Shown here in pieces: positions 1-9,788 of a stretch of 9,788 nt of DNA (the first letter of the stretch is position 1; each line of letters opens with the position of its first letter). Where the stretch lies: positions 1 to 9,788 of the IMG/VR virus record IMGVR_UViG_2703718846_000007. One strand, given 5' to 3'. The notes under the pieces are model-generated. The model worked only from the letters and a program-made list of their open reading frames with translations. It was not told where the DNA came from and searched no databases. Origin of the DNA: a virus (lineage: Duplodnaviria; Heunggongvirae; Uroviricota; Caudoviricetes). The translations under genes and the position numbers were made by a program.

Positions 1-1110
1 TTATCCCCTGAACCCTGGTGGAATTTCGGTGTCCGGTTCAGAAATGTGATTCACACAACGCTGGTTGTTCGTGCCGCTTACCGGGAGCAACCAGGGGTTT
101 TCAAAATTCCGGTCCGGTCCAAAAAACGTCGTCGCTCGCTGAACAAATTCCGTTCCCGCTTTCCCGGTCGCCGCCAGGTATCTCGCATAACGCCTCACAC
201 CATCCAGCATGGTCTCTGGTGGCACCCCCTCGCGCAATCTGGCCTTCCAGGCACTGAATGCGGATTTCTTCGGGTTTGCCCCGGCACGCAACGGGTATTC
301 CCGCCAGACCTGTTCGAACACATCCGGATAATCCACTCGTCCCACAGGCCGCCCGGTGTTTTCCGGGACTACCCGATCGGCTTCCCGCTGAATGGCGGAA
401 TCGACTTCAGGCTGCTGCAGTTGGTGTGATTGCTCCGCCCCTGCGGTCATCGCCTGCTGCACAGCGCCCGAATCGGCTTTCAGCGCATACGCCGAATCGG
501 CTTCCGGTGTCGTGCCTGCTGGCTGACCAGAATTTACGGTCTGAACATCCCCTGCCTGGTTCGTGGTGTTTTTTTCGCCATGAACCATAGTGTTTTTGTC
601 CTGTTCCTGTTCTTTCTCCTGCTCCTGTTCTTGGCTTCGAAGCCCCTTAAAAGCCCCTTCAAAGCCCCTTACCGAATTTCGGCTATTATTCCGCCTCACA
701 TCAAGATGGAAATCCGTTTTATATCTGTCGTAAAACGCTGACAGAAAAGCGTTTTCAGGTAATGATGCATACTCATTCCTGACACCTGCACAACGGTTAT
801 CGCCTGGCTTCAACGTTTCCCCAACCTGCCAGGCTGCCATTTCATGGACCCAGACCATCTCGGCATCATGGTCATAGCTACAAAAACCAGCTTCAACAGC
901 CCTTTTAAGCCCCTTTGAAGCCCCTTCCAGACCAAGCCCGGTTTCATGAGCAAGGTATAAAACTGGCAGGTAATACAAACCCAGCATATTTGCGTGAGGG
1001 GATGTCATCAGGTAAAAAGCAACAACTTGCGCTTCTGCACCCGCCTTTCTAAGTTCTCTCCCCGTTTCTCCCAGCCAGAATCGCGGAGAAACTTTTGCGT
1101 AATCACGCAT
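1..1110 (-). CDS. Phage replication initiation / replisome organiser protein (O-like), with a low-complexity QEQEQEKEQEQ linker between N- and C-terminal domains
   Basis: ORF-track frame 1..1221 with TAA stop at 1-3. I place the start at ATG 1108-1110 because GAGG lies 5 nt upstream, whereas ATG 1219-1221 has no Shine-Dalgarno. The N-terminus MRDYAKVSPRFWLGETG... resembles DUF1376-type initiators and the C-terminus YPDVFEQVWREYP...FVQRATTFF resembles the DnaT-like domain of phage replication proteins, both from memory. Confidence 0.8.
   Translation of the reverse strand: MRDYAKVSPRFWLGETGRELRKAGAEAQVVAFYLMTSPHANMLGLYYLPVLYLAHETGLGLEGASKGLKRAVEAGFCSYDHDAEMVWVHEMAAWQVGETLKPGDNRCAGVRNEYASLPENAFLSAFYDRYKTDFHLDVRRNNSRNSVRGFEGAFKGLRSQEQEQEKEQEQDKNTMVHGEKNTTNQAGDVQTVNSGQPAGTTPEADSAYALKADSGAVQQAMTAGAEQSHQLQQPEVDSAIQREADRVVPENTGRPVGRVDYPDVFEQVWREYPLRAGANPKKSAFSAWKARLREGVPPETMLDGVRRYARYLAATGKAGTEFVQRATTFFGPDRNFENPWLLPVSGTNNQRCVNHISEPDTEIPPGFRG
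640..670. repeat. Iteron-like direct repeats, cluster 1: three tandem AAGCCCCTT copies at 11-bp spacing
   Basis: Copies at 640-648, 651-659 and 662-670 (plus-strand reading), lying inside the initiator CDS. The three copies fall in three different codon phases of that CDS. Confidence 0.5.
897..926. repeat. Iteron-like direct repeats, cluster 2: two AAGCCCCTT copies plus one degenerate copy
   Basis: Exact copies at 907-915 and 918-926 and a degenerate copy (AGCCCTTTT) at 897-905, spaced 10-11 bp, inside the same CDS about 260 bp from cluster 1. Confidence 0.45.
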
Positions 1111-1327
1111 GGCTACCTCATCTGGTGCCGAACCTTCCTCCGGATATAATCTGTGGTTCCCAATCAACAGAACCAGAGGAGGTTCGACATGTATTTTTTG
1201 AAAAGCCTTTATCAGGCTCATGTATTAAATGTTGCAGCAACAAACCGCTGGTGTAACAGCCCCGAAATGCTCCCGGATTACAGAGCCTGGCTGCGCGCCG
1301 AAACATACCTTCGTCTCGACATATTGA

Positions 1328-1837
1328 TTAGCGAACTTCAAAAAGAGACTGCATCCATTCATAACCTTCAGGGTATCGACGCTGTTCGCATTCTGGTATC
1401 GCGCCATAGTGCTCTCTCAATAATTGAAGTGCGTCATCTCTCTTTTTCTGAACTGATTTTCTTGCTTCAACCAGCTCTGGAATCAGCGAATATCCCACCG
1501 AAAGTGATCCAATACCCACCTCATGTTGACGAGCAGTTACAAGATGTGCCATACAACCAGCGTGCTGGATTGACTCCCTGCTCAGAGGCTGAATGGGATC
1601 ACTCTCTGCTGAAGAAATACCAAGATTTGTATAATCCTCAATAAGCCCGGCACACGCTTCTGCATCAGCCAGCTTTATTCTGGTTTCCTTGCGCTGTTCT
1701 CTGGCTGACAAACGCCAGAGCAGCGCATTAGCTTTATGTATCAACCACTCTGCCAGCTCCACATCAGATAAACCGCCACGCCAGATGTGCGGACTGTTTT
1801 CGTAAACGCTCAGTGTCAATTTTTTGTCATTACTCAT
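1328..1837 (-). CDS. Hypothetical protein (169 aa) between the CII-like and initiator genes
   Basis: ORF-track frame 1328..1888, trimmed to ATG 1835-1837, which lies 13 nt after the upstream gene's stop. It is co-directional with the replication operon, and my hand count gives 58% purine at codon position 1 versus 48% for the overlapping plus-strand ORF. No family recognised. Confidence 0.5.
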   Translation of the reverse strand: MSNDKKLTLSVYENSPHIWRGGLSDVELAEWLIHKANALLWRLSAREQRKETRIKLADAEACAGLIEDYTNLGISSAESDPIQPLSRESIQHAGCMAHLVTARQHEVGIGSLSVGYSLIPELVEARKSVQKKRDDALQLLREHYGAIPECEQRRYPEGYEWMQSLFEVR

Positions 1838-1850
1838 ATTTATTACCCAA

Positions 1851-2276
1851 TTAATGCACAGCCAGAGTGTTTCCTGCCGGGCCACCACGATTCATCTGAT
1901 CGAACAGAACGATCGCTGATGCAACGAAATCATCAATATCTTTCACCAGCCGTTCCTTCGTCTCTACCAACTCCCGAAAATAAGCGGAACTGTGGCTGCG
2001 CATTCGGGCCACCAGCGGAGGCGGCATCGCTTTTTCGATCGCTGGTAACAACGCCTGAATTTTTTTAACCGCATCAGGAGTGTCTTTCTCCACCCAGCGG
2101 AAAATTTTCTGGGTGTTACGGCCCAGGGCTTCCGGATGGCTGTCGTCGTACAATTCCGGGAACGTCATACCGAGTTCGAAATACGCTTTGGTAATTTTCG
2201 CAGCCGGAACTTTTTCACCGTTCAGATGTGCCCAGGCATTCATCGCCATGCGGATGTGTTCATGCTTGATTTTCAT
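1851..2276 (-). CDS. YdaT-family protein (CII-like regulator, historically annotated as toxin YdaT)
   Basis: 141-aa ORF immediately downstream of the Cro-like gene, with an ATGA start/stop overlap at 2273-2276. Size, position and the MKIKHEH... N-terminus fit the YdaS/YdaT arrangement of Rac-like prophages (recollection, not searched). Confidence 0.7.
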   Translation of the reverse strand: MKIKHEHIRMAMNAWAHLNGEKVPAAKITKAYFELGMTFPELYDDSHPEALGRNTQKIFRWVEKDTPDAVKKIQALLPAIEKAMPPPLVARMRSHSSAYFRELVETKERLVKDIDDFVASAIVLFDQMNRGGPAGNTLAVH

Positions 2277-2500
2277 GAATCACTATTCCTCTCGCCATGA
2301 GTGGTATCCTTCTTTTTGTAAAGTTCTGGGTTCAAAGATAACTTCCCCTTGGAGTATGCTGCGGCTTCCGCAGCCCTCCCCTTTGGAACTATTTCACCAG
2401 GTCGCCTACGCCACATGTAAATAGCTTCACGGGTTATCCCATAAAAATCGGCAACCCTCTGAACAGAACCAAAAAACTGGACAAGTTCATCAACTCGCAT
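2273..2500 (-). CDS. Cro-like HTH transcriptional regulator (YdaS family)
   Basis: 75-aa ORF with a strong Shine-Dalgarno (AAGGAGGG) 4 nt upstream of ATG 2498-2500. It is divergent from the repressor gene and carries an HTH-like segment VQRVADFYGITREAIYMW. Confidence 0.8.
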   Translation of the reverse strand: MRVDELVQFFGSVQRVADFYGITREAIYMWRRRPGEIVPKGRAAEAAAYSKGKLSLNPELYKKKDTTHGERNSDS

Positions 2501-2596
2501 TTAGCCCTCCTTCAATCTAATTATTTTTAGACTAAATGATAATTTTTTTTAGGTCAATGCAATCTAAAATAATTTATATTCAATTCACGGGAGAAA
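2501..2596. promoter_or_regulatory. Divergent immunity control region (pR-like and pRM-like promoters with operators)
   Basis: 96-bp AT-rich intergenic region between divergent cro-like and cI-like genes. Minus-strand TTGACC (plus 2552-2557), 17-bp spacer, TAGTCT (plus 2529-2534). Repeated TTTTAG / CTAAAA half-sites, e.g. TTTTAGG-N11-ATCTAAAA at 2545-2568. Confidence 0.6.
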
Positions 2597-3244
2597 ATGA
2601 TGGAAAGCCTTGGCATCAGGCTAAAGAGACTCAGAAAAGATAAGGGACTAACCCAAGTAGAACTGGGTAAGCTTTCAGGTGTAACTGGAGTTACTGTAGG
2701 GTACTGGGAGAAGGATCTAAACGAACCTGGTAGTAAAGCTCTAAGTAAATTAGCCCAGGCATTAGGAACTACTGAGTCCTACCTCCTGTATGGAGTATCG
2801 TCTCCTGAATCATCTTTTATGCAGATCAATCCAGGCTCTCAGATCCCCTATTTTTCTTGGGGTGACGCGATTTCTTTCCTAATTTTAGAAGGAGAGAAAG
2901 CTATGGGAAATGTCGATAGGATCACCACATTCTTTGATGTCGAGGAAGGTGATTTTGCCGTTTCAATGCCTGATGACACTATGCATAACCCAACTGGGTC
3001 GCCGAGCATCCCAGTTGGTGCCACAGTGATCCTAAGGCCTAGAGAAAGTTATAAAAATGGTAGCATCGTCGCTGTAATAGTTCCGGATCCGCTTACAAAT
3101 GAACCATCTATGACTATAAAAAAATTAGTTATTGATGGAAAGCTTGCGTACTTAAGCCCTCTTAATCCACGCTATCAATCATCTTTGCTTACACCAGAGT
3201 GTAAAATTGTTGCCGTAGCAAAAGGCGTACAGTTCAACTTATAG
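2597..3244 (+). CDS. cI: CI-like phage repressor with N-terminal HTH and C-terminal S24 (LexA-like) autopeptidase domain
   Basis: 215-aa ORF with GGGAG upstream. N-terminal HTH LTQVELGKLSGVTGVTVGYWE; C-terminal motifs AVSMPDD (catalytic Ser), TIKKLV (catalytic Lys) and LSPLNPRY align with lambda CI GNSM, TFKKLI and LQPLNPQY. Confidence 0.9.
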   Translation: MMESLGIRLKRLRKDKGLTQVELGKLSGVTGVTVGYWEKDLNEPGSKALSKLAQALGTTESYLLYGVSSPESSFMQINPGSQIPYFSWGDAISFLILEGEKAMGNVDRITTFFDVEEGDFAVSMPDDTMHNPTGSPSIPVGATVILRPRESYKNGSIVAVIVPDPLTNEPSMTIKKLVIDGKLAYLSPLNPRYQSSLLTPECKIVAVAKGVQFNL

Positions 3245-3266
3245 CCCCGTCAAACCCTTTAATCTG

Positions 3267-3292
3267 AGGTCGGCAATGCCGACCTTTTTTTT
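3267..3292 (+). terminator. Rho-independent terminator downstream of the repressor gene
   Basis: Hairpin GGTCGGC-AAT-GCCGACC at 3268-3284 followed by eight T at 3285-3292, 23 nt after the cI stop. Confidence 0.75.
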
Positions 3293-3312
3293 AAATTATT
3301 TTAGATTTTCGC

Positions 3313-3341
3313 TTGACTAAAAAACTAAATACTTTTAGATT
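3313..3341 (+). promoter_or_regulatory. pL-like sigma70 promoter for the early-left operon
   Basis: TTGACT (3313-3318), 17-bp spacer, TAGATT (3336-3341). Flanked by two copies of TTTTAGATTT (3299-3308 and 3333-3342), the same half-site motif seen in the cI/cro intergenic region. Confidence 0.5.
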
Positions 3342-3515
3342 TATCACATACCCAACCCGCCCCACAGAATGCAGGGCAATACTTCGAGTTACCAGGCAGT
3401 GGTCAGGGGTTAAGTAGCCAGCCCGAGGCGTAAGAACATGACGGCAGGGTTCAACTTTAACTATGCAGCAGGTTTTTGTTCCGCCACCCCGGCGTTAAAG
3501 GGAAATGAGGTCAGC

Positions 3516-3668
3516 ATGGATACTATCGATCTTGGCAACAACGAATCTCTGGTATACGGCGTGTTTCCAAACCAGGACGGTACGTTCACCGCGATGACGT
3601 ATACCAAAAGCAAAACGTTTAAAACCGAAGCTGGCGCGCGTCGCTGGTTAGCCAGAAATACTGACTGA
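3516..3668 (+). CDS. Small early protein (50 aa), YdaF-like / DUF1391-like
   Basis: ATG 3516 with GAGG 5 nt upstream; TGA stop at 3666-3668. The ORF-track frame extends upstream to 3438 but that start is less well supported. Family assignment is from memory only. Confidence 0.55.
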   Translation: MDTIDLGNNESLVYGVFPNQDGTFTAMTYTKSKTFKTEAGARRWLARNTD

Positions 3669-3679
3669 TGAGGTTAACG

Positions 3680-4315
3680 ATGGAATTTAAAGATTTACCG
3701 CTATCAATCCAGGAGATTGCAGCACACACACTACGTCAACGTCTGAACGAAGCTATGGCTGAATCTGCAACGAAAGAAACCATTGATAACATGGCTCGTA
3801 ATGTGCACGATGCGTTTACCGGATTGTATTTCTGTGCGTCTGTAAATAAACACGACCCAGAGAGTGTGGCAAAGAAAATTGCAGAAACGACAGTGCAAAA
3901 CATCAATACGAAACCAACCGAAGACGAAATTGACCAGCCTGCCAGTGAACAAAAGAAAGAAAAATCGCCATATGCGGGGAACATGTTTGTTTATGACAAA
4001 CTTATCCGAATTCGTGGCGAAATTCCGACTGAATACCTGGCAAAAATTCACCAGGCATTACTTAAAAATCTGGAAACGGAAGTATTTGATGGCAACACCA
4101 ACGGCTCCTTCGTGGTGTCAGCCCTCACAAAAGAGTGGGATACAGATAATCGCCGGAATGTTGCTACATGGTTATTCAGCAACAAAGCTGCTGCCCTGGA
4201 AGCTGCGGCCTGTATTTGCGACCTGCTAAGGACAGACCGCAAATACAACCTGGATGTGTATAGCTATATTTATGCTGAACACTATCCACTCTGGATTGAC
4301 TGGTTTAAAGGGTAA
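3680..4315 (+). CDS. Hypothetical early protein (211 aa), function unknown
   Basis: ORF-track frame 3668..4315. ATG 3680 has GAGG 6 nt upstream; the alternative ATG 3668 overlaps the preceding stop (TGATG). Soluble, non-repetitive protein; no motif recognised. Confidence 0.7.
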   Translation: MEFKDLPLSIQEIAAHTLRQRLNEAMAESATKETIDNMARNVHDAFTGLYFCASVNKHDPESVAKKIAETTVQNINTKPTEDEIDQPASEQKKEKSPYAGNMFVYDKLIRIRGEIPTEYLAKIHQALLKNLETEVFDGNTNGSFVVSALTKEWDTDNRRNVATWLFSNKAAALEAAACICDLLRTDRKYNLDVYSYIYAEHYPLWIDWFKG

Positions 4316-4412
4316 CACCTGCGGGACCGAGCCGACCAGCACCACGATTATTTTATCCTCCATTAAGGGGTGAATTAAAAATGGAGACCAACACGCTGCT
4401 ACGTGTGGTCGT

Positions 4413-4452
4413 GCGCCGGACACGGATAACCTTCCGGCATGCTCTTTAACAA
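4413..4452 (+). promoter_or_regulatory. Candidate processive-antitermination site: hairpin followed by an rrn-type boxA (TGCTCTTTAACAA)
   Basis: Exact 13-mer TGCTCTTTAACAA at 4440-4452 on the plus strand, preceded by hairpin GCCGGA-N12-TCCGGC at 4415-4438. Orientation matches pL-directed transcription. Confidence 0.4.
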
Positions 4453-4477
4453 TCTGGATATCCACAACAGCAATAAC

Positions 4478-4996
4478 CTACGGATTGCTGCTCAATGCTC
4501 TACCTATCTCTTCTTCAGATGGGGGCGGTATATAGTCATCATTGCGTTCAAATTTAAAGCGCGAATCACATTTCAGGCATTTAGAAATATGGAACTTATC
4601 ATGCTCACCAATTTCAACAGGTTGAAGTATTGCTATTACACCATGCTGATAGCAATTGGGACAGGCATAGTGAAAACATGTGTCTTCTTCGTCGAGGCTG
4701 TTCCTGAAAGCATAGACAAAATGCCCAAAACCAGTTTTGTGTATCGTATAGCATTCAAGTTTTCGATTACGCTCGTCAATTTCATGACATTTTTGCTTAA
4801 GCAAGAGTATTTCCTCGTACTGAAGCGCGAGCGTTTTCGCTAGCTCTGCGTTCTGTATTTGTAAGTCTGCCAGTTGGCGACGCATTTCGTAGACAGCCTT
4901 TTCACGTTCAGATTGGCTTTTTGCATCAAGTATTACCTGTAATAAATCAATCGAGACTTTAATTGCCGTTATTGATGAAGTTATTCCAGATAGCAT
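4478..4996 (-). CDS. Hypothetical coiled-coil plus zinc-ribbon protein (172 aa) on an antisense-oriented AT-rich insert
   Basis: ORF-track frame 4478..5113, trimmed to ATG 4994-4996 because a perfect TATAAT lies about 32 nt upstream. N-terminal heptad-like region RRQLADLQIQNAELAKTLALQYEEILLLKQK; C-terminal CPNC...CLKC cysteine pairs. GC is visibly lower than in the flanks. Confidence 0.65.
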   Translation of the reverse strand: MLSGITSSITAIKVSIDLLQVILDAKSQSEREKAVYEMRRQLADLQIQNAELAKTLALQYEEILLLKQKCHEIDERNRKLECYTIHKTGFGHFVYAFRNSLDEEDTCFHYACPNCYQHGVIAILQPVEIGEHDKFHISKCLKCDSRFKFERNDDYIPPPSEEEIGRALSSNP

Positions 4997-5007
4997 TCTT
5001 AACTCTC

Positions 5008-5060
5008 TGTGTTGTTGGGGTATCCGGATTATACAAATTTCTTGTTGTTGGGGAACAACA
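5008..5060 (-). promoter_or_regulatory. Promoter and candidate operators for the antisense gene
   Basis: Minus-strand TATAAT (plus 5028-5033). Two copies of TGTTGTTGGGG (plus 5010-5020 and 5043-5053); the second forms a perfect palindrome TGTTGTT-GGGG-AACAACA (5043-5060) over the -35 region. Confidence 0.5.
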
Positions 5061-5313
5061 GGAACCACCTCGCCTGATGTGGTTAAAAGCAGGCACACAA
5101 CACGAAAGCGCACGGCGAAGGTTTCTTTTCCTTAGAAGGCTTGTCGTTAGATTTCTTCGACCGTGCGCTTCCGGTTGTGGCAATCCGCGAAATGGCGCGG
5201 CGGTAAGTATGGCGGGGTTATCCTTACCCCCACTGGTAGCACCGGGTTGTCAGGTTGACCATACGCTTAAGTGACAACCCCGCTACAACACTCCATGTTG
5301 AGTATTGACCTTT

Positions 5314-5354
5314 GGCGGCATCAGTTTAATTGCTGGCTGATGTCCGCCCTTTTT
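5314..5354 (+). terminator. Rho-independent terminator (plus strand)
   Basis: Stem GGCGGCATCAG (5314-5324), 12-nt loop, stem CTGATGTCCGCC (5337-5348), then CTTTTT (5349-5354). Confidence 0.6.
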
Positions 5355-5550
5355 AAAGTGAATTTTGTGATGTGGTGAATGCGGCTAAGCGCACGCGGAA
5401 CAGTTAAAAGACCATTTGTTCTCCGTATCAATACTTATGGGTAGGTACTTGCAGGCGGGTCCCTGTATTCCGGCGTTAATTGTTAACTGGTTAACGTCAC
5501 CTGGAGGCACCAGGCACCGCATCACAAAATTCATTGTTGAGGACGCGATA

Positions 5551-5739
5551 ATGGAAACGTTATTACTCAATTCCACTACGCCTGAGACTCGTTTTGAAAT
5601 TGGCGTTATCACTGGCGATAAAAACTTTATTGAAGATGCCATTAATCAGATAAAGCATGAGCCAGATTCATCAAATGAGATATGCATTGCTTCAATGCTG
5701 GCCCGTTTACGCCCGACGCAAAAAGGATGCTGGCAATGA
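5551..5739 (+). CDS. Hypothetical small protein (62 aa)
   Basis: ATG 5551 with GAGGA 7 nt upstream; stop TGA 5737-5739 overlaps the next start. The ORF-track frame begins at 5416 but upstream in-frame starts lack a Shine-Dalgarno and use rare codons. Confidence 0.45.
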   Translation: METLLLNSTTPETRFEIGVITGDKNFIEDAINQIKHEPDSSNEICIASMLARLRPTQKGCWQ

Positions 5740-5939
5740 ATACCACATTTGCACTTGTTCTGACGGTTTTTCTTGTTTCCGGTGAACCAGTTGACATGGT
5801 TATTGGCGTATACAGCTCAATGAAAGAATGCATGGCTGCCGCAGATGAACAGAAAATTCCCGGTAACTGTTATCCGGTCGATAAAGTTATTCACCAGGAT
5901 AATAACGAAATCCCGGCAGGACTTAAAACAGCGCCGTAA
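5736..5939 (+). CDS. Hypothetical small protein (67 aa) with an N-terminal hydrophobic segment
   Basis: ATG 5736 overlaps the upstream stop (ATGA), with AAGGA 8 nt upstream. N-terminus MNTTFALVLTVFLVSG looks like a signal peptide or transmembrane helix. The ORF-track frame starts at 5682. Confidence 0.5.
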   Translation: MNTTFALVLTVFLVSGEPVDMVIGVYSSMKECMAAADEQKIPGNCYPVDKVIHQDNNEIPAGLKTAP

Positions 5940-6016
5940 TTGATATTCGGTTTCATTTTTATATGTCAGCAATGACAGGGATTTGTTCACCCTTAAATCT
6001 GTAATGAGGTTTATCA

Positions 6017-8482
6017 ATGAGCACTGATAAAGAAGAATTTGCATTATATTGTGAAGCAAAAAATGACAAAGTCAGAAAACGCCTTGGAATTAAAGGTGGT
6101 TTTTACTGGACTACAGCAAAAAAATTATCTGTTGCCATCTCCCGCTGCATTACCGCAATGGATGACAACGATTATGATGAAGACGACTTTAAAAAACCCG
6201 TCCGCGTCCATTTACCCGTTGTGAATGACCTTCCACCTGAAGGCGTGTTTGATACTGAATTCTGTAACCGTTACGAAAAAGGCGGGGAAGATGGCATCAC
6301 AATGGTATTTATCGCGCCCTCACCCTCTGCGCAGGACAAACCAGCCAACACTGACAATACCAACGTCAACGGCGAAGACATGACTGAGATTGAGGAGAAC
6401 ATGCTCCTGCCGGTTTCAGGTCAGATTCTGCCTGTTCGATGGCTGGCACAGCACGGCAGCGAAAAACCGATCACACACGTTTCGCGGGACGAACTGCGCG
6501 CATTACATAACGCACAGGATGAAAAACTTCCCGCCGTTACCGCGCTGGCTATCTCAAATAAAGCAGCGCAACTCGAACCGCTGGAGATTCGCGATCTCCA
6601 CAAACTGGTGCGAGACACTGACAAAGTTTTCCCCGCCCCCGTAAATTCGGACCTGGGACTGATAACTTCTTTTATCGAAGCATACCTGGACGCCGACTAC
6701 ACCGATCGCGGTCTGCTGACAAAAGAGTGGATGAAAGGAAATCGTGTTTCGCGTATCACCCGTACGGCTTCCGGTGCAAATGCCGGTGGCGGGAACAAAA
6801 CCGATCGCAATCCGAATTTAGTACACACCTTCGATACGCTGGATGTGGAGACTGCAGCAGCCACACTTCCGATGGATTTTAATATTTATGAAATTCCGGG
6901 TAGCGTTTATCGTCGCGCAAAAGAAATCGTCCTGAAAAGAGAAAGTCCGTTCAAAGAATGGTCCGCAGCACTTCGCGCAACCCCGGGTATTCTGGATTAT
7001 TCCCGCGCCGCTATTTTTGCACTTATCCGGAGCGCTCACCCTGAGTTTTATCACTACCCGGGACGCCTTCAGGGGTATATCAACGCCCACTTAACGGAGA
7101 CTGATCACGAGAACCCCAGCAAGGAAACTCTCACTGCTGCACGACATACACCGGAAAAAGATATCCTGGAAGAAGTTAACCGCGAACTGGCTGCTGAACG
7201 CGAAACAGAAGAAGAAAAAAATAATGAGGAAAAATCACAACCGTCTGACGCAATGGCAGATGAACAGGCAACGGCCGAAGCAATGGAGCCGGATACAACT
7301 GAACATCACCAGGACACGCAATCGCTGGATACTCAGGAACAGGTAGATCCAGTTAAACAGGTAAAAGTTACCGCTGACGAAGTAAACAAAATTATGCAGG
7401 CAGCCAATATCAACCAGCCTGATGCCGACAAAATACTGGCAGTCCATCGCGGTGAGTTCGTTGACGGAATTAGCGACCCGAATGATCCGAAATGGGTTAA
7501 GGGGATTGAAACCCGCGATTCTGTGAACCAGAACCTGCCCGAATCGGAACAAAACGACCAGAAAGCGGAACAGAACAGCCCAAATACGTTACAAAACGAG
7601 CCAGAAACGAAACAGCCTGAACCAGAAGAGCAACAAGAACCGGAAAAAGTCTGCACCGCCTGCGGTCAGAGCGGTGGCGGCAACTGCCCTGATTGTGGCG
7701 CGGTGATGGGCGACGCAACATACCAGGAAACATTCGATGAAGAGAATCAGGCTGAAACTCAGGAAAATGATCCGGAGGAAATGGAAGGCGCTGAACATCC
7801 GAACAATGAGAATGCTGGTAACGATCAGCATCACACCAGCGATAGTAAAACTGGCGAGGCGGCAGATCCCTTAATTACGGTGAACAGTCATCACATTATC
7901 ACATCCACCAGCAGGGTATGGCACCATCTGATGATCGACCTTGAAACGATGGGAATTAACAGCAATGCGCCCATCGTAGTTATTGCTGCAGTGTTTTTCG
8001 ATCCGCAGACCGGGGAAATCGGACCGATATTTTATGTTGTCATCAGTCTGGTTGACGCAATGGACAAAGGTGCTACTCCCGATGGTGACGTAATCGAATG
8101 GTGGCTGGCGCAGTCCAGCGAGGCCAGATCTGCAATATTGGTAAATCAAATTCCGTTAGATGATGCACTATTGCAATTGCGGGAATTTATCGACGAAAAC
8201 TCCGGTGAATTTTTTGTTCGGGTCTGGGGAAATGGAGCCAGCTTCGACAACGTGATTTTACGCCGTTCATATGAACGGCAGGGTATCCCCTGCCCGTGGC
8301 GTTACTGCAACGATCGCGATGTGCGCACAATCGTTGATCTGGGAAAAGCCATAGACTTCGATGCCAGAACAGCTATTCCGTTCGAAGGCGTACGCCATAA
8401 TGCACTGGATGATGCCCGCCACCAGGCAAAACAAGTTTCAGCTATCTGGCAAAAACTGATCCCGAGTCAGGTTGATTTTTAA
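6017..8482 (+). CDS. Large prophage exonuclease (821 aa): RecE/exodeoxyribonuclease VIII-like N-terminal region, acidic low-complexity linker, CxxC-x9-CxxC zinc ribbon, C-terminal DEDDh-type 3'-5' exonuclease domain
   Basis: ATG 6017 with GAGG 7 nt upstream. C-terminal about 196 aa (nt 7892-8479) carry DEDDh motifs MIDLET, GNGASFD and HNALDD. Zinc ribbon CTACGQSGGGNCPDCG near nt 7651-7700. N-terminal segments (NTNVNGEDMTEIEENMLLP..., DYTDRGLLTKEWMKGNRVS...) resemble enterobacterial exonuclease VIII proteins as I recall them. Confidence 0.85.
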   Translation: MSTDKEEFALYCEAKNDKVRKRLGIKGGFYWTTAKKLSVAISRCITAMDDNDYDEDDFKKPVRVHLPVVNDLPPEGVFDTEFCNRYEKGGEDGITMVFIAPSPSAQDKPANTDNTNVNGEDMTEIEENMLLPVSGQILPVRWLAQHGSEKPITHVSRDELRALHNAQDEKLPAVTALAISNKAAQLEPLEIRDLHKLVRDTDKVFPAPVNSDLGLITSFIEAYLDADYTDRGLLTKEWMKGNRVSRITRTASGANAGGGNKTDRNPNLVHTFDTLDVETAAATLPMDFNIYEIPGSVYRRAKEIVLKRESPFKEWSAALRATPGILDYSRAAIFALIRSAHPEFYHYPGRLQGYINAHLTETDHENPSKETLTAARHTPEKDILEEVNRELAAERETEEEKNNEEKSQPSDAMADEQATAEAMEPDTTEHHQDTQSLDTQEQVDPVKQVKVTADEVNKIMQAANINQPDADKILAVHRGEFVDGISDPNDPKWVKGIETRDSVNQNLPESEQNDQKAEQNSPNTLQNEPETKQPEPEEQQEPEKVCTACGQSGGGNCPDCGAVMGDATYQETFDEENQAETQENDPEEMEGAEHPNNENAGNDQHHTSDSKTGEAADPLITVNSHHIITSTSRVWHHLMIDLETMGINSNAPIVVIAAVFFDPQTGEIGPIFYVVISLVDAMDKGATPDGDVIEWWLAQSSEARSAILVNQIPLDDALLQLREFIDENSGEFFVRVWGNGASFDNVILRRSYERQGIPCPWRYCNDRDVRTIVDLGKAIDFDARTAIPFEGVRHNALDDARHQAKQVSAIWQKLIPSQVDF

Positions 8483-8548
8483 TGTTCAACCCTGATCGCC
8501 GTCTCCGAATTATATTGGCGGCGGTCATGCTGTAAGGCACGTGACCAC

Positions 8549-8800
8549 ATGTACGAATTAACTCTATCGCCAGCAGAGATTCAAGAGATCACGAGATACG
8601 AGCGATACACAAGACAGCAACACCAGTTAAGGCTGCACGGAATTCCATTTGTAACCGGACCTAAAAATGAACCAATAGTTCTTCGCAAGGACGTTCCGCT
8701 AGGGCTGACATCGATACCGGATGCATCTGAACTGGTTTCTGCCGAACCTGATTTTGAGGCACTAAATAATGGGAAGACCAAGAATAAACAAAAAAGATAA
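8549..8800 (+). CDS. Putative excisionase / recombination directionality factor
   Basis: 83-aa ORF immediately upstream of int, overlapping it by 32 nt, as lambda xis overlaps int. No sequence similarity to lambda Xis recognised, so the call is positional. Confidence 0.45.
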   Translation: MYELTLSPAEIQEITRYERYTRQQHQLRLHGIPFVTGPKNEPIVLRKDVPLGLTSIPDASELVSAEPDFEALNNGKTKNKQKR

Positions 8801-9788
8801 TGTACTGCCACCACGGGTTAGATCGAATGGTTACAGTTACGTATGGAAACCCAAAGGAAGCACGAGAACGATAAGGCTCGGAAGGGTGCGGGAAACCAGC
8901 GTGGCTAAAGTCTGGCAAAATTATGAACTGGAAAAGGCAAAACTCCACGACATAATGACCGTCGCTAAATTATGGCACATGTTTATGGACTCCCCTGCAT
9001 TTACAGAATTGGCACCCCGAACTCAAAAAGATTATCGACAACATCAAAGGGCGTTGCTGGCGGTATTCGGAAAAGTGCTTGCTGATAATGTAAAAATTGA
9101 GCAGGTAAGAATTTTCATGGATAAACGGGGGCTTGAGAGCAAGACCCAGGCAAATCATGAACTGGCAAGTCTGAGTCGCGTATATGGATGGGGGTATGAG
9201 CGTGGGTATGTGAAAAATAATCCATGCAAAGGAGTCAGAAAATTCACGCTTAAAGCCCGTACTGTTTACATCACCGATGAACAGTATGCTGCGATATATG
9301 CGGAAGCAATTCCACAGTTACGTATTGCAATGGAGATATCCTATCTTTGTGCGGCAAGGCTCGGTGATGTACTCGAGCTGAAATGGCAGGATATTATGGA
9401 TAAAGGGATTTACATTGAGCAAAACAAGACCGGCACTAAACAAATCAAGGAATGGTCTCCGCGATTACGCACAGTGATCCAATTAGCCCGAAATGTATCT
9501 TCCGGCACATGCGAGTATGTGATCAACACAACCAAAGGCGGGAAGGTCATAGCTAAAACGCTGAACAACTGGTGGAATCAGGCTAAACGTGCAGCCGAGC
9601 AAAAAGCCGACGTTCCGTTTGGGTGCAACTTCCATGACATAAAAGCCAAAGGGATTTCAGATTACGAAGGCAGCAGCCGCGACAAACAAATTTTCAGTGG
9701 GCACAAAACAGAAAATCAGGTGTTGATTTATGATCGCAAAACAAAAATCACGCCAACACTGGATCTACCTCTTGTGGTCAGTAAGTAA
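8769..9788 (+). CDS. int: Tyrosine recombinase, lambda-family phage integrase
   Basis: 339-aa ORF with GAGG 9 nt upstream and TAA stop at 9786-9788. The catalytic region aligns to lambda Int: RLGDVLELKW (Arg-I), YIEQNKTGTK (Lys), FHDIK (His), GHK (His) and LIYDRK (Tyr). The N-terminus is basic like the arm-binding domain. Confidence 0.9.
   Translation: MGRPRINKKDNVLPPRVRSNGYSYVWKPKGSTRTIRLGRVRETSVAKVWQNYELEKAKLHDIMTVAKLWHMFMDSPAFTELAPRTQKDYRQHQRALLAVFGKVLADNVKIEQVRIFMDKRGLESKTQANHELASLSRVYGWGYERGYVKNNPCKGVRKFTLKARTVYITDEQYAAIYAEAIPQLRIAMEISYLCAARLGDVLELKWQDIMDKGIYIEQNKTGTKQIKEWSPRLRTVIQLARNVSSGTCEYVINTTKGGKVIAKTLNNWWNQAKRAAEQKADVPFGCNFHDIKAKGISDYEGSSRDKQIFSGHKTENQVLIYDRKTKITPTLDLPLVVSK

Follow-up and report, generated by a model that had tools for sequence, protein, structure and literature searches.

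The window, by which the whole stretch of 9,788 nucleotides (nt) analysed here is meant (IMG/VR record IMGVR_UViG_2703718846_000007, positions 1 to 9,788), covers the immunity region and the early-left region of a lambdoid prophage of Escherichia coli that resembles Rac and Qin and is integrated beside yccA. On its plus strand, just ahead of a gene of opposite orientation, it carries an exact copy of the boxA antitermination element of ribosomal RNA (rrn) operons (TGCTCTTTAACAA, 4440-4452). A cI-like repressor gene (2597-3244, with HTH_3 and Peptidase_S24 domains according to Pfam) and its terminator (3266-3286) are followed immediately by a pL-like, sigma-70-like promoter (TTGACT-17-TAGATT, 3313-3341, plus strand), which is the presumed start of the transcript that contains boxA, and no intrinsic terminator is predicted by a terminator scan between this promoter and boxA. 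The operon on the plus strand begins with a conserved pL leader (3342-3515, approximately 90% identical to the leader between racR and ydaG of the K-12 Rac prophage), a first gene encoding a DUF1391 protein (YdfA/YdaF-like, 3516-3668, Pfam E = 1.2e-28), and an open reading frame (ORF) of 215 amino acids (aa) assigned to phrog_2151 (3668-4315), which lies between the DUF1391 gene and the boxA module. The module itself consists of a hairpin in the position of an rrn boxB (4415-4438), the boxA, and an extended conserved block (GCTCTTTAACAATCTGGATATCCAC, 4441-4465), of which the first 17 nt (4441-4457) are the unit common to an rrn spacer, phage T7 and other phages. On the minus strand follows a convergent gene that encodes a 172-aa protein of phrog_1244, counted from its ATG, with a CxxC...CxxC motif at the C-terminus (4478-4996; the open frame reaches back to a GTG at 5113), and the pL transcript would cross this gene as untranslated antisense RNA. 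Beyond it are a DicF-like small RNA (sRNA) with a terminator hairpin and T-run (5303-5354, plus strand; Rfam DicF, with a terminator scan match at 5317-5344), dicB (5551-5739, plus strand, Pfam DicB E = 1e-25), which is the first co-directional gene past the antisense stretch, and then a DUF1482 gene and the genes for a RecE-type exonuclease (6017-8482), xis (8549-8800) and int (8769-9788). The arrangement is also that of the K-12 Rac prophage, where sieB fills the convergent position and KilS/kilR stand where the window has DicF/dicB.

The 13-mer on the pL-sense strand is identical to the boxA of the K-12 rrnB leader (L085 266-278), as the sequence-only reading of this DNA had stated, and its judgement that a chance match is improbable is borne out by dinucleotide-preserving shuffles, among which an exact TGCTCTTTAACAA occurs in 0 of 200. 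No second TGCTCTTTAACAA site is found in the window even with two mismatches allowed, and a second consensus boxA is absent both from the window and from the pR side of the loci examined; GCTCTTTAACA at 4441-4451 is the sole match in the window to the published functional boxA consensus, GYTCTTTAANA (PMC5725501, Baniulyte et al. 2017). This uniqueness, the shuffles and the conservation in distant loci described below rule out a chance origin of the match. The upstream hairpin, in the order known from rrn operons, is also present as described: GCCGGA (4415-4420), a 12-nt loop (4421-4432) and TCCGGC (4433-4438) form a stem of 6 base pairs (bp), followed by A4439 and boxA. In the centroid fold the hairpin forms and boxA is unpaired; the 91-nt region does not fold more stably than its shuffles do (z = -0.36). 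The only palindrome downstream of boxA is UGGAUAUCCA (3 bp/4 nt), for which relatives give no sign of compensatory upkeep. The boxA is separated by 125 nt from the end of the 215-aa ORF and lies in noncoding RNA, and it would occupy the sense strand of the predicted pL transcript in a stretch free of ribosomes. Two coding explanations were considered and rejected: a 22-codon ORF (4382-4450) with its stop codon inside boxA has internal stops or no start codon in relatives, and a 134-codon ORF depends on an ATG at 4439 that is absent from the type B prophages described below. The sequence-only reading had also remarked that it saw no N-like, arginine-rich protein in the window, and a search of nine ORFs that was not exhaustive likewise gave no N-family Pfam match.

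Conservation was assessed in a sample of one genome per species, gathered by a protein alignment search for homologues of the convergent gene, a procedure blind to the DNA motif. The 13 homologues recovered (26-36% aa identity) belong to Citrobacter, Scandinavium, Enterobacter, Kosakonia, Trabulsiella and Symbiopectobacterium, and on the opposite strand of 10 of these 13 loci a boxA with zero to two mismatches follows the stop codon at a distance of 10-58 nt. In sequence terms the conserved unit is larger than the 13-mer and reads GCTCTTTAA(C/A)AATCTGG. In a profile of the loci, boxA is invariant at positions 2-10 and 12-13 and variable at positions 1 (T/C/A) and 11 (C/A), and the 11 nt from +13 to +23 have a mean majority identity of 0.88, with flanks at approximately 0.45-0.5; the loci of this profile were picked by a pattern for positions 2-13, and the 10 of 13 above is the unbiased statement of conservation. 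The variants found (GTTC.., ..AATAA, ..AAAAA, and T, C or A at position 1) fall on degenerate positions of GYTCTTTAANA.

The antiterminator in the 16S-23S spacer of rrnB (L085 2272-2291) reads TGCTCTTTAAAAATCTGGAT, so that the match between the prophage block and rrn spans 20 nt rather than 13; the spacer and the window agree at 19 of 20 positions, and for the loci of Scandinavium and Enterobacter (L068, L074) the agreement is complete (20 of 20). Phage T7 has CGCTCTTTAACAATCTGG at nt 813-830 (L201 414-431), 3' of promoters A1-A3 and 5' of gene 0.3, and T7-like contigs with diverged flanks keep the 17-mer. A scan of IMG/VR for GCTCTTTAAMAATCTGG found at least 120 loci, with many different flanks (by a rough estimate, 10-20 would be expected by chance for the 17-mer), and in every interpretable case the motif is sense to the early transcript. 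Since the unit is common to T7, the rrn spacer and the prophages, boxA-like conservation reaches past the 3' end of boxA as usually defined (12-13 nt), by another 5-7 nt.

The element is tightly associated with convergent genes. When lambdoid contexts with a hairpin of type A or type B (see below) and with distinct downstream sequences were examined for the dominant ORF within the next 450 nt, that ORF was convergent in 49 of 52 (a largely inherited co-occurrence), as against 11 of 37 other contexts. The convergent genes fall into at least four families unlinked by BLASTP (34 phrog_1244-like, nine membrane proteins of 148-166 aa, two of secreted type and one of 87 aa), so that the position of the element directly before a convergent gene, which the sequence-only reading had noticed at this one locus, recurs with at least four unrelated families and in several genera. 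A further independent context is L176, in which a different leader and the same boxA precede another convergent ORF (1440-1745). Five genomes without boxA (SfV, ST64B, ZF40, mEp460_4F5 and K-12 e14) have the same pL leader, no convergent gene, and a co-directional first gene. The sequence, strand and position of the element, its deep conservation and its tight link to convergent genes are what is directly shown.

Two narrower accounts of this association were rejected. The boxA is not bound to one gene family, for at least four unrelated convergent families, and some co-directional ORFs too, follow it; nor is it part of the conserved pL leader, which SfV, ST64B, ZF40, mEp460_4F5 and e14 possess without it. 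The convergent slot after boxA is the position of sieB in lambda and in Rac; examples of its occupants are found at 4478-4996 (minus strand) in the window, at L130 4917-5363, in L156/L175, in L140, and at L176 1440-1745. The 172-aa protein of the window has no Pfam or PADLOC match, only its assignment to phrog_1244, and a homologue search gave a small family; the small proteins that occupy the slot in general, which belong to at least four unrelated families and include a membrane protein, also have no PADLOC match. They are candidates for exclusion or defence cargo.

Megablast comparisons show that the window is a mosaic at boxA: a 90-bp hairpin module (4350-4439) ends at the first base of boxA, and a second module extends from boxA into the terminal part of the convergent gene. 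More than 1000 E. coli genomes have the 90-bp module, at approximately 94% identity. In O157:H7 (L002 2501-2590) it is the 5' flank, including the ribosome-binding site, of a 61-aa minus-strand gene that is gone from the window, and there it has no boxA. It also holds a second possible hairpin (4386-4410), the sequence of which differs among relatives. The rrn-like order of hairpin and boxA holds, with the qualification that the hairpin belongs to a separate mosaic module, which in O157 exists without boxA as well. The hairpin of the window (type A) has a conserved stem and a variable loop in 12 distinct relatives, and its module is a fixture of operons of the DUF1391...dicB-recE kind (18 loci); in compact relatives, including the O157:H7 prophage at potC, hairpin and boxA follow the DUF1391 gene by only approximately 55 nt. 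The segment 4405-4500 of the window is matched in 613 of 5426 complete E. coli genomes (approximately 11%), O157:H7 among them.

Prophages of type B (e14/SfIV/CPS-53-like, for example L003) have a different hairpin beside boxA, AAGCGCCC-N4-GGACGCTT (L003 2475-2500 and other type B loci). The protein of their convergent gene is only 33% identical to that of the window, yet 30 nt (GCTCTTTAACAATCTGGATATCCACAACAG) are 100% identical. On the convergent strand the type B hairpin has a fully paired stem, one of its pairs being G.U, and a U6 tract (-12.1 kcal/mol), and on the pL strand it has a C.A mismatch at the same position (-7.5 kcal/mol), an asymmetry that points to a one-way terminator of the convergent gene, arranged head-to-head with boxA and weak for pL transcription. 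Type A lacks this U-tailed terminator and keeps the boxA block intact. The same kind of asymmetry was tried as a strand indicator for the type A hairpin and rejected, for two variants point in opposite directions. Mosaic joints bracket the boxA unit: the joint between type A and type B lies at its 5' edge, and that of SfIV-type phages right after TCTGG, past which they have an unrelated segment with a co-directional ORF.

The element is probably a functional, N-independent, rrn-type loading site for Nus factors on the pL transcript of this Rac/Qin-like prophage. Upon removal of the repressor, RNA polymerase starting from pL would transcribe the leader, the DUF1391 gene and the 215-aa gene; boxA in the emerging untranslated RNA GCUCUUUAACAAUCUGG would be bound by NusB-S10, which together with NusA, NusG and SuhB would give rise to a Rho-resistant polymerase complex, in which the 3' extension could plausibly play the part of the linker between boxA and boxC of rrn, contacted by SuhB and NusA. 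This complex would cross approximately 850 nt of untranslatable RNA, made up of the antisense of the 172-aa gene and the DicF region, and would reach dicB, recE, xis and int. Function in the pL RNA is favoured by the identity to the rrn spacer and to T7 in sense orientation, by the joints that bracket the unit, and by the asymmetry of the type B hairpin; Nus-factor binding, Rho resistance and a role for the 3' extension are inferred. In published work, a lone boxA shields long untranslated CRISPR (clustered regularly interspaced short palindromic repeats) transcripts from Rho (PMC7665894, Stringer et al. 2020), the countering of Rho at rrn in vitro requires boxA and NusB, SuhB binds rrn RNA 3' of boxA and NusA binds boxC (PMC6614801), and boxB is much less important in rrn antitermination (review, PMC12360218). 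In the window no GU-rich boxC is found 3' of boxA; the 7 nt that adjoin boxA are the same as in the rrn spacer copy, and conservation over the 11 nt 3' of boxA is 0.88. Between 3340 and 6100 the plus strand has only two rut-like stretches with more C than G, one at 4420-4620 that begins around boxA and one at 5220-5300 just before DicF, which lends weak support to the proposed mechanism.

Among known systems the rrn antiterminators (boxB-boxA-boxC, the site of the rrnTAC with NusA/B/E/G, SuhB and S4) are closest, for the 13-mer is the same as the leader boxA, the spacer copy has the same 7 nt (TCTGGAT) after boxA as the window, and a phage protein would likewise not be required. The rrnB leader, GCCGCUgagaaaaagcgaAGCGGC-AC-TGCTCTTTAACAA, has a boxB stem of 6 bp (GCCGCU/AGCGGC), a loop of 12 nt and a spacer of 2 nt, against 6 bp, 12 nt and 1 nt in the window. 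The window element differs from rrn in having no GU-rich boxC (UGUGUGGG), in a hairpin of unrelated sequence that is replaced in type B, and in its setting, which is not an rrn operon but the early mRNA operon of a prophage with an antisense protein gene next to it. The nut sites of lambda and P22 likewise place a boxA on the pL transcript before a convergent exclusion slot (pL-nutL-N-<sieB in lambda), with Nus factors implied. The window element is nevertheless not a nut site of lambda type, because it has no boxB 3' of boxA (its hairpin is upstream), no N protein was found, and there is no partner site on the pR side; moreover, lambda nutL has a non-consensus boxA (CGCTCTTAA), whereas that of the window is the full rrn consensus and lies 1.1 kb from pL, after two genes. 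The boxA of CRISPR arrays (PMC7665894) is likewise lone and conserved before a long untranslated transcript; there protection from Rho is experimentally proven, whereas in the window it is proposed and the protected RNA would be the antisense of a protein gene inside a phage operon. In T7 the same 17-mer (GCTCTTTAACAATCTGG) is sense to the early leader, with promoter A3 on one side and gene 0.3 on the other, a short distance after the early promoters; unlike the prophage of the window, T7 is a virulent podovirus with co-directional downstream genes and no convergent gene next. HK022 is also a lambdoid phage without N, and the window transcript begins with a structured leader in the position of put; put, however, is a factor-independent cis-acting antiterminator, a two-stem RNA that binds RNA polymerase, whereas boxA is a linear protein-binding motif. 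No description of boxA in N-less prophages of the Rac/Qin type was found in the literature collection searched, which is incomplete.

Several points weigh against a role of the element in antitermination on the pL transcript. One lineage (..TTTAGCAA, four loci; AGCTCTTTAGCAA) breaks GYTCTTTAANA at a consensus position, and the singletons of the IMG/VR scan may be due to chance. The co-occurrence with convergent genes being largely a matter of inheritance, 49 of 52 overstates the number of events, and the count of families (at least four to five) is safer. In some contexts, such as suhB and hisG, boxA can promote Rho termination (PMC12360218). The structured pL leader might already give a termination-resistant polymerase, in which case boxA would be redundant, and the block is also the 3' untranslated region (UTR) of the convergent gene, where a function on the other strand is possible.

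A broader generalization is offered tentatively: N-less temperate phages of Enterobacterales may use a portable extended boxA of 17-20 nt (GCUCUUUAAMAAUCUGG) at the convergent cargo slot as a general anti-polarity device, with the invariant 3' extension as a second recognition determinant, for SuhB/NusA, that has so far not been counted as belonging to boxA. Exclusion or defence genes could then ride backwards in the operon without being polar on the genes of recombination, excision and cell division. If Nus-factor loading is correct, N-less prophages resembling Rac, Qin, e14 and SfIV would cross a backward gene to dicB, recE/T, xis and int by borrowing the host's ribosomal antitermination, and the natural N-independent targets of boxA (rRNA, suhB and CRISPR leaders) would extend to a very common class of prophages. 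The tolerance of convergent exclusion or defence genes at the slot would then have an explanation. It would also point to a conserved 3' extension of boxA, common to the rrn spacer, T7 and temperate phages, that is biochemically testable.

The first alternative to be weighed is that the block acts on the other strand: in the 3' UTR of the mRNA from the convergent gene it could stabilize the 3' end, provide a terminator context or be a 3'-UTR-derived, Hfq-type sRNA (AUUGUUAAAGAGC plus hairpin plus U-tail), its likeness to boxA being incidental. Such a role would suit the type B loci, in which a strong intrinsic terminator of the convergent strand follows the stop codon, with the complement of boxA between the two, and the block does travel with convergent genes, while the hairpin variants fail to discriminate between the strands. 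It would leave unexplained the identity over 17-20 nt to the rrn spacer and the T7 early leader in pL-sense orientation, and the pattern of variation, which fits the NusB/E consensus. Moreover, the block is intact in type A, where no U-tailed terminator exists, and is kept in SfIV-type loci, where the convergent ORF is more than 200 nt away behind the co-directional ORF; the distance from stop codon to block varies from 6 to 218 nt, and no Rfam family matches the block on either strand. An other-strand function is considered unlikely.

It is quite unlikely that boxA here promotes Rho termination, as in suhB and hisG, and thereby keeps the lysogen from expressing the toxic dicB and the recombination genes through leaky pL transcription. 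Cardinale and colleagues are said to have found in 2008 that Rho silences the rac kil gene in K-12. The C-rich, G-poor stretch that begins at boxA would suit Rho promotion. Enhancement of Rho termination that depends on boxA is documented (PMC5725501, PMC12360218), but the suhB mechanism is one of translational repression with a start codon within approximately 50 nt (PMC5725501), and the window has no co-directional start codon after boxA. Termination would also cut off xis and int, which lie downstream and are needed for excision; K-12 Rac, the prophage with the reported silencing by Rho, has no boxA according to a consensus scan, and the copies in T7 and rrn sit where read-through is required.

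That the block is a homology linker for recombination of lambdoid modules, or a relic captured from rrn, with no present role in transcription, is very unlikely. Mosaic joints do fall exactly at both of its edges, and many of its carriers are cryptic prophages, but the motif is kept across genera in which the adjacent coding sequence is saturated with change, its substitutions are limited to functionally permissive positions, and it keeps a consistent orientation and place with respect to pL and to convergent genes; linker sequences, besides, are usually conserved because they are functional. Least probable of the four is that Nus loading serves RNA folding or processing, such as the folding of a DicF-like sRNA or maturation by RNase III/E, in parallel with the chaperone role proposed for rRNA: the main role reported for Nus factors at rrn is in RNA folding (PMC5725501) and both a DicF-like sRNA and an STnc100-like element lie downstream, but type B prophages carry the element without DicF downstream, and the common denominator is the convergent gene rather than an sRNA.

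The structure at 5314-5354, which the sequence-only reading had taken for a terminator to be overcome by antitermination, is probably the 3' hairpin of a DicF-like sRNA rather than a simple operon terminator, as indicated by the Rfam match and by alignment with dicF of the Qin prophage. With 37.9 bits (E = 1.7e-5) the match to Rfam DicF (RF00039) stays under the gathering score, which is 48 bits; its flanks can be aligned with the dicF region of K-12 Qin, and dicB follows. Read-through of this structure by Nus-modified polymerase is less certain than the crossing of the antisense stretch: complexes of rrn type are primarily directed against Rho, yet reduce intrinsic termination in vitro, the complete complex having been found to do so (PMC6614801), so that read-through would be possible but weaker. 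Compared with K-12 DicF, the sRNA of the window is shorter by 7 nt in its 5' part and differs in its loop, and its range of targets may differ on account of these two changes. A sub-threshold match to Rfam STnc100 (5351-5570, plus strand, 33.9 versus 47 bits, E = 1.8e-4) occupies the segment between the DicF-like sRNA and dicB, which is conserved in K-12 Qin and in O157.

A conserved noncoding leader is found 10-20 nt after the pL promoters of many immunity types (window 3342-3515; L084, K-12 e14, 1110-1177, minus strand; L079, SfV, 1505-1565; L080, ST64B, 1502-1562; L003 2405-2470), and has no Rfam family. Its short form of approximately 65 nt (AACGAACAGGCAGGACGCCCACGAAGUAGCCGCC...GGAUGAUUCG) consists of a closing stem and two hairpins, with compensatory changes in 10 of 16 pairs; the leader of the window is the longer, Rac-type form, and contains AAGUAGCCAGCCCGAGGCGUA, which is related to the covarying short leader of e14, SfV and ST64B. 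Homology of the pL leader to HK022 put was considered and rejected, for there is no BLAST similarity, and a covariance model built on the short leader gives no match in HK022 or in the window; the likeness to HK022 putL is a positional resemblance, in position and size only. In the IMG/VR prophage L176 (approximately 1205-1257) the pL leader, TCGAACGGCGCGACTTTAAACCATGCGTCGG, is very similar to stem I of HK022 putL (GACGAACGGCGCGTCTTTAAACCATGCGTCGGG), and the extended boxA directly follows this leader, in place of put stem II.

The RecE-type exonuclease is encoded in the window by a single ORF of 821 aa (6017-8482), and this gene and the immunity region show that the window does not come from the prophage copy in strain C5. 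In strain C5 (L001 7907-10273), which is identical to the window around boxA and differs from it in the immunity region, the recE region is annotated as a truncated pseudogene and a separate exonuclease ORF.

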